Shown: positions 52,513 to 53,068 of the stretch, piece after piece
Numbering within the stretch: position 1 is the stretch's first letter
Layout of the letters: every line of letters starts with the position of its first letter
Source: Escherichia coli
GTDB lineage: Bacteria; Pseudomonadota; Gammaproteobacteria; Enterobacterales; Enterobacteriaceae
Direction: 5' to 3' (one strand)
NCBI RefSeq assembly: GCF_024502345.1
Contig: NZ_JALDNN010000001.1
DNA: 64,000 bases
Made by a program: the position numbers and the translations under genes
The notes under the pieces: generated by a model
What the model was told of the DNA's origin: nothing
What the model saw: the letters and a program-made list of their open reading frames with translations, nothing else
Databases searched by the model: none

Positions 52513-52625
52513 AAGAAAACATCCCCTGAGAGTTTAATTTTCGTCAAGATGCGTGGCGGACAATCCCCTGCCAGCGAAACGTTATCTTCCTGCTCCAGGT
52601 TTGCGGCAATTTGGTGCGTCGCAAA

Positions 52626-52641
52626 AAAGCAAACGTTTAGC
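52626..52641. promoter_or_regulatory. Candidate PurR operator upstream of ghxP
   Basis: aGCAAACGTTTAGC near-palindrome about 115 bp upstream of ghxP; second GCAAACG half-site near 52671. Confidence 0.4.
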
Positions 52642-52924
52642 TCCGCGCATACAAAACGGGTGGTAAAAAAAGCAAACGATTATCCGGCGATCATAGCGGC
52701 TTTTTCAACCGAAGTTTGCTGCTTTTTTCTCTTTTATTGTCTTGACGATGAAAAACCAGGCAATTGATGCGCAAACGTTATCGTCGGTGCGCAAGATTGC
52801 AGCGTTATCGAGCCGTATACCGTTCAGGATTGCGATAAAAAATCGTCTGAGATGACAAAAATATTGCGGATAAAAAGTATACTTTTACACTGGCGAAGAA
52901 ATGCCGGTGACATACAATTAAAGC

Positions 52925-53068
52925 ATCAACACCAACCGGAACCTCCACCACGTGCTCGAATGGGGTGTGTTGACGTCGGGGGAAACCCTCCTGTGTACCA
53001 GCGGGATAGAGAGAAAGACAAAGACCGGAAAACAAACTAAAGCGCCCTTGTGGCGCTTTAGTTTTGTT
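52925..53068 (+). ncRNA. Candidate small RNA (RyjA-like) ending at a terminator that overlaps the soxR 3' end
   Basis: Plus-strand hairpin aaagcgcc/ggcgcttt followed by agttttgtt at 53039-53068, in the soxR-ghxP intergenic where an sRNA is known in K-12; 5' end not determined. Confidence 0.3.

Follow-up and report, generated by a model that had tools for sequence, protein, structure and literature searches.

The 545-bp spacer that separates ghxP (yjcD) from soxR in Escherichia coli is, with a probability that we put at about 0.9, a regulatory region of three layers: the small RNA gene sraL with a terminator shared with soxR, a ghxP promoter set among PurR operators, and a folded leader in the ghxP transcript. 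The sequence features, their statistics and their conservation were determined here; the expression and targets of the sRNA, PurR occupancy of the region and repression by adenine are taken from published work.

The spacer was analysed within a 64-kb stretch (the window), which is inverted relative to K-12 (window position x corresponds to NC_000913.3 position 4330991 - x). With the ghxP ATG at 52512 and the soxR stop codon at 53058..53060, its length agrees with the 545 bp given in a first-pass annotation. It differs from K-12 at nine of 621 aligned bases, with no indels. The 801 bases spanning it were matched in 5,420 of 5,426 complete E. coli genomes, and the best identity of this stretch among the complete E. 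coli genomes in the collection was at most 99.5%. The window GhxP is 100% identical to the cluster named GhxP. The genes of the locus and the features at its soxR end are as follows.

51163..52512, minus strand: ghxP (yjcD) coding sequence, guanine/hypoxanthine permease (449-aa ORF; Pfam Xan_ur_permease, 305 bits; RefSeq)
52913..52918, plus strand: TACAAT, the sraL -10 hexamer, with TTAAAG after it; the Rfam 5' end lies 7 nt downstream
52925..53065, plus strand: sraL/ryjA sRNA gene (Rfam RF01408, end-to-end match)
53034..53064, both strands: bidirectional intrinsic terminator of sraL (plus) and soxR (minus), a perfect 13-bp stem that folds on either strand
53058..53522, minus strand: soxR coding sequence (154-aa ORF; MerR-family Pfam hits; RefSeq)
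53608..53931, plus strand: soxS

Most genera carry a gene for a glutathione S-transferase of about 220 aa between sraL/soxR and the ghxP control region, among them Klebsiella, Enterobacter, Salmonella and Erwinia (for example, L041 2468..3136, minus strand; also L045, L046, L048 and L049). Escherichia, Trabulsiella, Cedecea and some Citrobacter are without it, and thus the Escherichia spacer, which had been described as long, is the short form of the locus. Two ORFs in the spacer (72 aa on the plus strand, and 88 aa on the minus strand, antisense to sraL) were rejected as chance ORFs, being unannotated in K-12 and having flanks that are not conserved across genera.

The covariance model RF01408 matched 52925..53065 over model positions 1-142 with a score of 150.9 bits (E = 2.6e-35; gathering score, 39), and K-12 ryjA (b4459) is annotated at the homologous position, 4277926..4278066. 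These two results bear out the earlier proposal of an sRNA, named there as RyjA, antisense to the 3' end of soxR. In the window the gene overlaps the 3' end of soxR by 8 nt, and its convergent arrangement with soxR recurs in K-12 and in the other soxR-containing loci. Compared with K-12 sraL/RyjA, the full-length match, the position, the terminator and the -10 region are alike, and the one difference is an A-to-G substitution at 52963, which turns a U-A pair into a U-G pair in an internal hairpin of sraL. The -10 block that precedes the sRNA, (C/T)ATA(C/G)A(A/C)TTAAAG, is kept across genera, and the window has TACAATTAAAG at the right distance, which we take as the predicted sraL promoter. In Salmonella, the sraL promoter was demonstrated to be RpoS-dependent (PMC3753932), and SraL, which is RpoS-dependent and stabilised by Hfq, pairs upstream of the tig ribosome-binding site to repress tig (trigger factor) and pairs with the rho leader, by which the rho mRNA is shielded from premature termination (PMC3753932, PMC6582626).

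To survey sraL, one genome per species was scanned for two conserved sraL segments. The survey yielded 43 loci from about 15 genera of Enterobacteriaceae with the synteny ghxP-sraL-soxR, and the sRNA body, the terminator and the -10 block are kept in about 20 genera, even where the flanks differ. The Rfam sraL model was also matched in the Salmonella and Mangrovibacter loci. No match at the Rfam gathering score was obtained in the Cedecea and Erwinia loci (L047, L048, L049), in which the gene order soxS-soxR-(gst)-ghxP and the leader of ghxP are retained. The absence of a match despite the presence of the leader indicates that the range of the sRNA is narrower than that of the leader structure described below. 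Two loci carry unexpected taxonomic labels, namely L018 (a metagenome-assembled "Bacillota bacterium") and L034 ("Chryseobacterium sp. 18061"). Both are typical Enterobacteriaceae ghxP-sraL-soxR loci, with GhxP identities to that of the window of 99.8% and 92.9%, respectively, and the labels probably reflect contamination or mislabelling in the public records.

The terminator is an inverted repeat (53034-53046 with 53052-53064) of 13 perfectly paired bp around a 5-nt loop, followed on the plus strand by TTTTGTT. The first-pass annotation had placed a plus-strand terminator over the soxR stop codon at 53039..53068; that reading stands, with boundaries a few bases off. The last sense codon and the stop codon of soxR lie within the 3' arm. 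Read as minus-strand RNA, the hairpin has a folding energy of -30.4 kcal/mol (z = -6.2), which none of 200 shuffles equalled, and UUUGUUUUCC comes after it, so that U-rich tracts lie downstream of the stem in both directions. The minus-strand fold together with the trailing UUUGUUUUCC indicates that the terminator is bidirectional and common to the two convergent genes. It resembles other bidirectional terminators between convergent genes in having a GC-cored perfect hairpin with A-rich and T-rich flanks that folds on both strands, and it differs from them in that the soxR frame enters the stem by two codons in Escherichia and C. amalonaticus. These two extra codons (..EQN; window 53058..53064) are peculiar to the two taxa just named; the SoxR of most other genera is 152 aa long, with its stop codon outside the stem.

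Because the hairpin acts by its fold as a minus-strand terminator and holds the soxR stop codon, it might be a terminator of soxR alone, with no independent gene on the plus strand. We consider this hardly credible, since the covariance match is full-length and includes 110 nt upstream of the hairpin, about 20 genera share the sRNA body and -10 region in spite of differing flanks, and the gene is annotated in K-12 with published expression, RpoS dependence and targets. On the preferred reading of an independent sraL gene, the plus strand would give rise, from a sigma-S-type promoter, to an Hfq-dependent SraL of about 141 nt that ends at the hairpin common to soxR.

At the other end of the spacer, the region upstream of ghxP contains a predicted promoter and several PurR-like boxes.

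52522..52527, minus strand: ghxP Shine-Dalgarno sequence AGGGGA, 9-10 nt upstream of the ATG and invariant in 34 leaders
52573..52588, minus strand: weak PurR-like box, AAGATAACGTTTCGCT (7.95 bits, at window background)
52627..52642, unstranded: proximal PurR operator candidate, AGCTAAACGTTTGCTT on the ghxP strand (18.7 bits; about +30..+45 from the predicted start)
52670..52685, unstranded: middle PurR-like box, GGATAATCGTTTGCTT (11.1 bits; overlaps the -10 hexamer and the predicted start)
52679..52708, minus strand: predicted sigma-70 ghxP promoter, TTGAAA-N18-GATAAT (10 of 12 consensus positions; start predicted at about 52671)
52769..52784, unstranded: distal PurR operator, ACGATAACGTTTGCGC on the ghxP strand (18.3 bits; about -105 from the predicted start)
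52788..52794, unstranded: TTGCGCA block, 3 nt upstream of the distal box

The window was scanned on both strands with a PurR matrix built from 27 ChIP-chip motifs (PMC3159470) from which the present locus was excluded; the training sites scored 12.1-24.7 bits. The best match in the 64 kb was 52627..52642, which reads AAGCAAACGTTTAGCT (18.7 bits; P = 2.4e-7 per position). This is the motif that had been noticed from the sequence at 52626..52641, one base off. The distal box at 52769..52784, which is equally strong, had not been singled out. Both strong boxes fit the 16-bp operator ACGNAAACGTTTGCNT with its central CG. At this strength, about 0.03-0.04 matches are expected by chance per 64-kb window and about 0.0003 per 545 bp, and the best match elsewhere in the window scored 12.3 bits. 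The middle box in E. coli (11.1 bits) lies below the weakest training site (12.1 bits), and in many genera it reaches 14.1 bits. Three of the six matches to GCAAACGWT in the window are packed within 150 bp here. At the TTGCGCA block, ATTGCGCA is invariant in the 20-genus alignment; the block was rejected as a PurR half-site, as it has no central CG and scores below 9 bits.

In the 20-genus alignment, GTTGAAAA and GGATAATCGTTTGC are invariant and together make up TTGAAA-N18-GATAAT, and GTTGAAAA and GATAAT are likewise invariant in six further loci, including Erwinia. The CGTTTGC half-site of the middle box, downstream of the -10 hexamer, is also invariant. From this promoter we infer a start at about 52671, corresponding to K-12 coordinates of about 4278319-4278321, which places the distal box at about -105 and the proximal box at about +37; the leader would then be some 160 nt long. 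The supplementary tables of the Cappable-seq study and of the E. coli and Klebsiella start-site study list nothing close to this coordinate or under the gene name, so that the positions of the boxes relative to +1 are to be read as inferred. Reiterative transcription sensitive to UTP, at the T7 run that follows the -10 hexamer, was rejected, because the run is not conserved beyond Escherichia and Citrobacter. A candidate second promoter, TTGCCA-N16-TAACGT, coincides with the distal box; it is weak, has a degenerate -35 in E. coli and is unsupported.

The arrangement of the boxes is conserved as well. All three are kept in 36 of the 36 enterobacterial loci that reach the ghxP start, with scores of 13.9-19.1 (distal), 11.1-14.1 (middle) and 15.7-20.3 bits (proximal), and the proximal box is also found in Salmonella, Cedecea, Mangrovibacter and Erwinia. 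Of the 40 loci that have both a distal and a middle box, 39 show the two exactly 99 bp apart (the 36 loci plus Salmonella, Cedecea and strain ESL0689; 100 bp in Mangrovibacter), despite varying intervening sequence. The distal box is missing in the Erwinia locus, and the distance between the middle and proximal boxes is variable (43-205 bp). The near-fixed 99 bp suggests a spacing constraint, for which a dimeric PurR offers no established mechanism; we know of no looping by this dimer.

Published data place PurR at this region in vivo. A ChIP-chip peak designated ryjA/yjcD was seen only with adenine (log2 2.08), and the motif assigned to it was ACGATAACGTTTGCGC, the distal box (PMC3159470). 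In window coordinates the peak covers approximately 52530..53160 (630 bp) and thus spans every box and the whole spacer, and at this resolution the occupancy of individual boxes cannot be assigned. Adenine represses ghxP, which has been placed in the PurR-1 iModulon (PMC6892915, PMC8376909), and the iModulon study likewise names the distal box. The authors of PMC3809563 cite PurR-dependent repression of yjcD by adenine and add, as an unpublished observation, that a purine analog gives 4-fold repression. Taken together, the adenine-dependent peak, the iModulon membership and the citation in PMC3809563 support the earlier suggestion of PurR operators upstream of ghxP and show that PurR control of the gene was already known. 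Compared with the PurR operators of the E. coli purine regulon (purT, purMN, xanP), the boxes are similarly 16-bp imperfect palindromes with a central CG and a CGTTTGC half-site, they lie beside a purine-related gene, and the region is PurR-bound in vivo only with adenine. They differ in number, with as many as three conserved boxes at a single promoter (about -105, -6 and +37), and in the near-invariant distance of 99 bp between the distal and middle ones.

That the published motif assignments name the distal box alone, and that the proximal box is transcribed as part of the leader, where a downstream ACGTTT segment is complementary to it, would fit a situation in which only the distal box works as an operator and the proximal motif is conserved as one strand of an RNA helix (P2, below); one pair of this helix (30/99) covaries as CG, UG and UA. 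We regard this as unlikely. The proximal box scores as high as the distal one and is equally conserved; its 18.7 bits against a matrix from other loci equal those of bona fide operators; the whole 16-mer is conserved, including the positions left unpaired in P2; and P2 was not picked by RNAalifold unaided. PurR operators downstream of the start are, moreover, an established arrangement at purR and purB. The proximal box is a plausible PurR operator as judged from its sequence. With PurR and hypoxanthine or guanine bound at the boxes, RNA polymerase would be excluded at the middle (-10) box, elongation would be stopped at the proximal box, or both, and the distal box would contribute in a spacing-dependent manner. 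GhxP imports the corepressors of PurR, so that PurR repression would amount to negative feedback on corepressor uptake.

A further feature, which the first-pass annotation did not report, is a fold in the ghxP leader. Its elements, all on the minus strand, are the following.

about 52547..52652: structured ghxP 5' UTR element of about 106 nt, as judged from covariation and a covariance model
52652-52643 with 52556-52547: P1, a long-range helix that encloses P2, P3 and P4
52642-52632 with 52583-52573: P2, proximal-box RNA with the ACGUUU of the weak box
52624-52618 with 52607-52601: P3 hairpin
52567-52564 with 52560-52557: P4 hairpin

When 34 leaders were aligned with MAFFT, 93.3% of the cells were paired and 12 pairs changed on both sides, and none of 500 shuffles scored as high; when the partners were slid by 1-3 columns as a control, 28-43% were paired. 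The covariation in this alignment involved six of the nine pairs of P1 and five of the seven pairs of P3 (6/7 when P3 was tested alone). RNAalifold predicted P1, P3 and P4 from the leaders, and P2 was absent from its prediction. The variants of P1 keep pairing: GUAUGCG/CGCAU.., GUAAGCG/CGCUUAC, GUCAACG/CGUUGAC and GUAUACG/CGUAUAC; among the added taxa, Salmonella has GUAUACGUGG/CCACGUAUAC, Cedecea GUCUGUG/CACAGAU and Erwinia AUGCGUGG/CCACGCAU. A covariance model (R1) derived from the leader alignment matched 52510..52668 on the minus strand with 160.9 bits. Run over both strands of 39 loci (355 kb), it gave a single match in each locus, in every case immediately before ghxP; the scores were 154 bits in Salmonella, 56 in Cedecea and about 41-43 in Erwinia and Mangrovibacter. 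When the leaders were aligned to the model, a procedure that favours the structure, changes on both sides were seen at 17 of 30 pairs, and covariation at 7/9 pairs of P1 and 7/7 of P3.

The leader might instead be conserved as DNA, that is, as binding sites for a protein (PurR half-sites or those of another regulator), with no RNA fold. The PurR-like palindromes in it are inherently self-complementary, and P2 and P4, being mostly invariant, provide little information on the fold. P1 and P3 argue against this explanation, as seven of nine and seven of seven pairs, respectively, change in sequence yet stay complementary. So does the strand test, in which 95.8% of cells were paired in the sense orientation versus 87.9% in the antisense, with G-U in 86 cells versus A-C in 6; the excess of G-U over A-C indicates that the folded strand is the ghxP mRNA. 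We consider conservation as DNA alone quite improbable, and the RNA fold is probably real on this comparative evidence. The leader of about 160 nt would then fold as a junction in which P1 closes around a P2-P3 arm and the P4 hairpin, and the transcribed PurR operator may form part of this fold. The weak box, for which a PurR site at -76 was predicted in PMC4576408, is conserved only in its ACGTTT core, which pairs with the proximal-box RNA, and it is more likely the partner strand of P2 than a PurR operator.

The window itself departs from K-12 within P3, where G in place of A at 52606 gives an A-C mismatch and a change at 52614 falls in the loop. The P3 loop in most genera is CCCCU, which is complementary to the AGGGG of the Shine-Dalgarno sequence; the K-12 loop has CAGC and that of this window CACC, neither with CCCCU. 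The conserved fold does not include the Shine-Dalgarno sequence.

An Rfam scan of 51000..54500 on both strands at E <= 1 returned sraL as the only family, with the leader unmatched, and the purine riboswitch aptamer model RF00167 likewise gave no match in the leader at E <= 1. The resemblance to this riboswitch (Firmicutes pbuG, pbuX) is an analogy only, consisting of a position in the 5' UTR of a hypoxanthine/guanine transporter gene and a three-way junction of P1 and two arms. The two differ in length (about 106 nt for the ghxP leader and about 70 nt for the riboswitch), in the lack of a model match and in the location of the leader's Shine-Dalgarno sequence outside the fold. To our knowledge, purine riboswitches are not known in enterobacteria. 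A literature search for a ghxP/yjcD leader RNA, a riboswitch or an Hfq link returned nothing relevant. Two other readings of the leader were rejected: a leader peptide of 22 codons from the AUG in GUAUGCG, because the AUG is not conserved (GUAAGCG, GUCUGCG and GUUUGCG elsewhere), and an attenuator or terminator, because the T-run on the sense strand lies 5' of P3, and the A-run on the antisense strand follows the hairpin, leaving no intrinsic terminator in either direction.

As sraL/RyjA and the control of ghxP by PurR are already covered by Rfam, RefSeq and earlier papers, the original finding was correct yet ordinary. The present analysis refines it in that ghxP has two strong PurR boxes and one weaker box rather than a single site, in a geometry that is rigid across the Enterobacteriaceae, and in that the "-76" PurR site is better read as an RNA pairing partner. 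The leader RNA may be the sole novelty. We propose tentatively, at somewhat less than even odds, that the ghxP 5' UTR is an undescribed conserved cis-acting RNA that adds post-transcriptional control in E. coli and its relatives; it would possibly respond to a metabolite, to a protein (for example, via conserved GGA motifs) or to Rho. A covarying leader on a guanine/hypoxanthine permease gene in the best-studied bacterium would be a testable candidate for a new cis-regulatory element.
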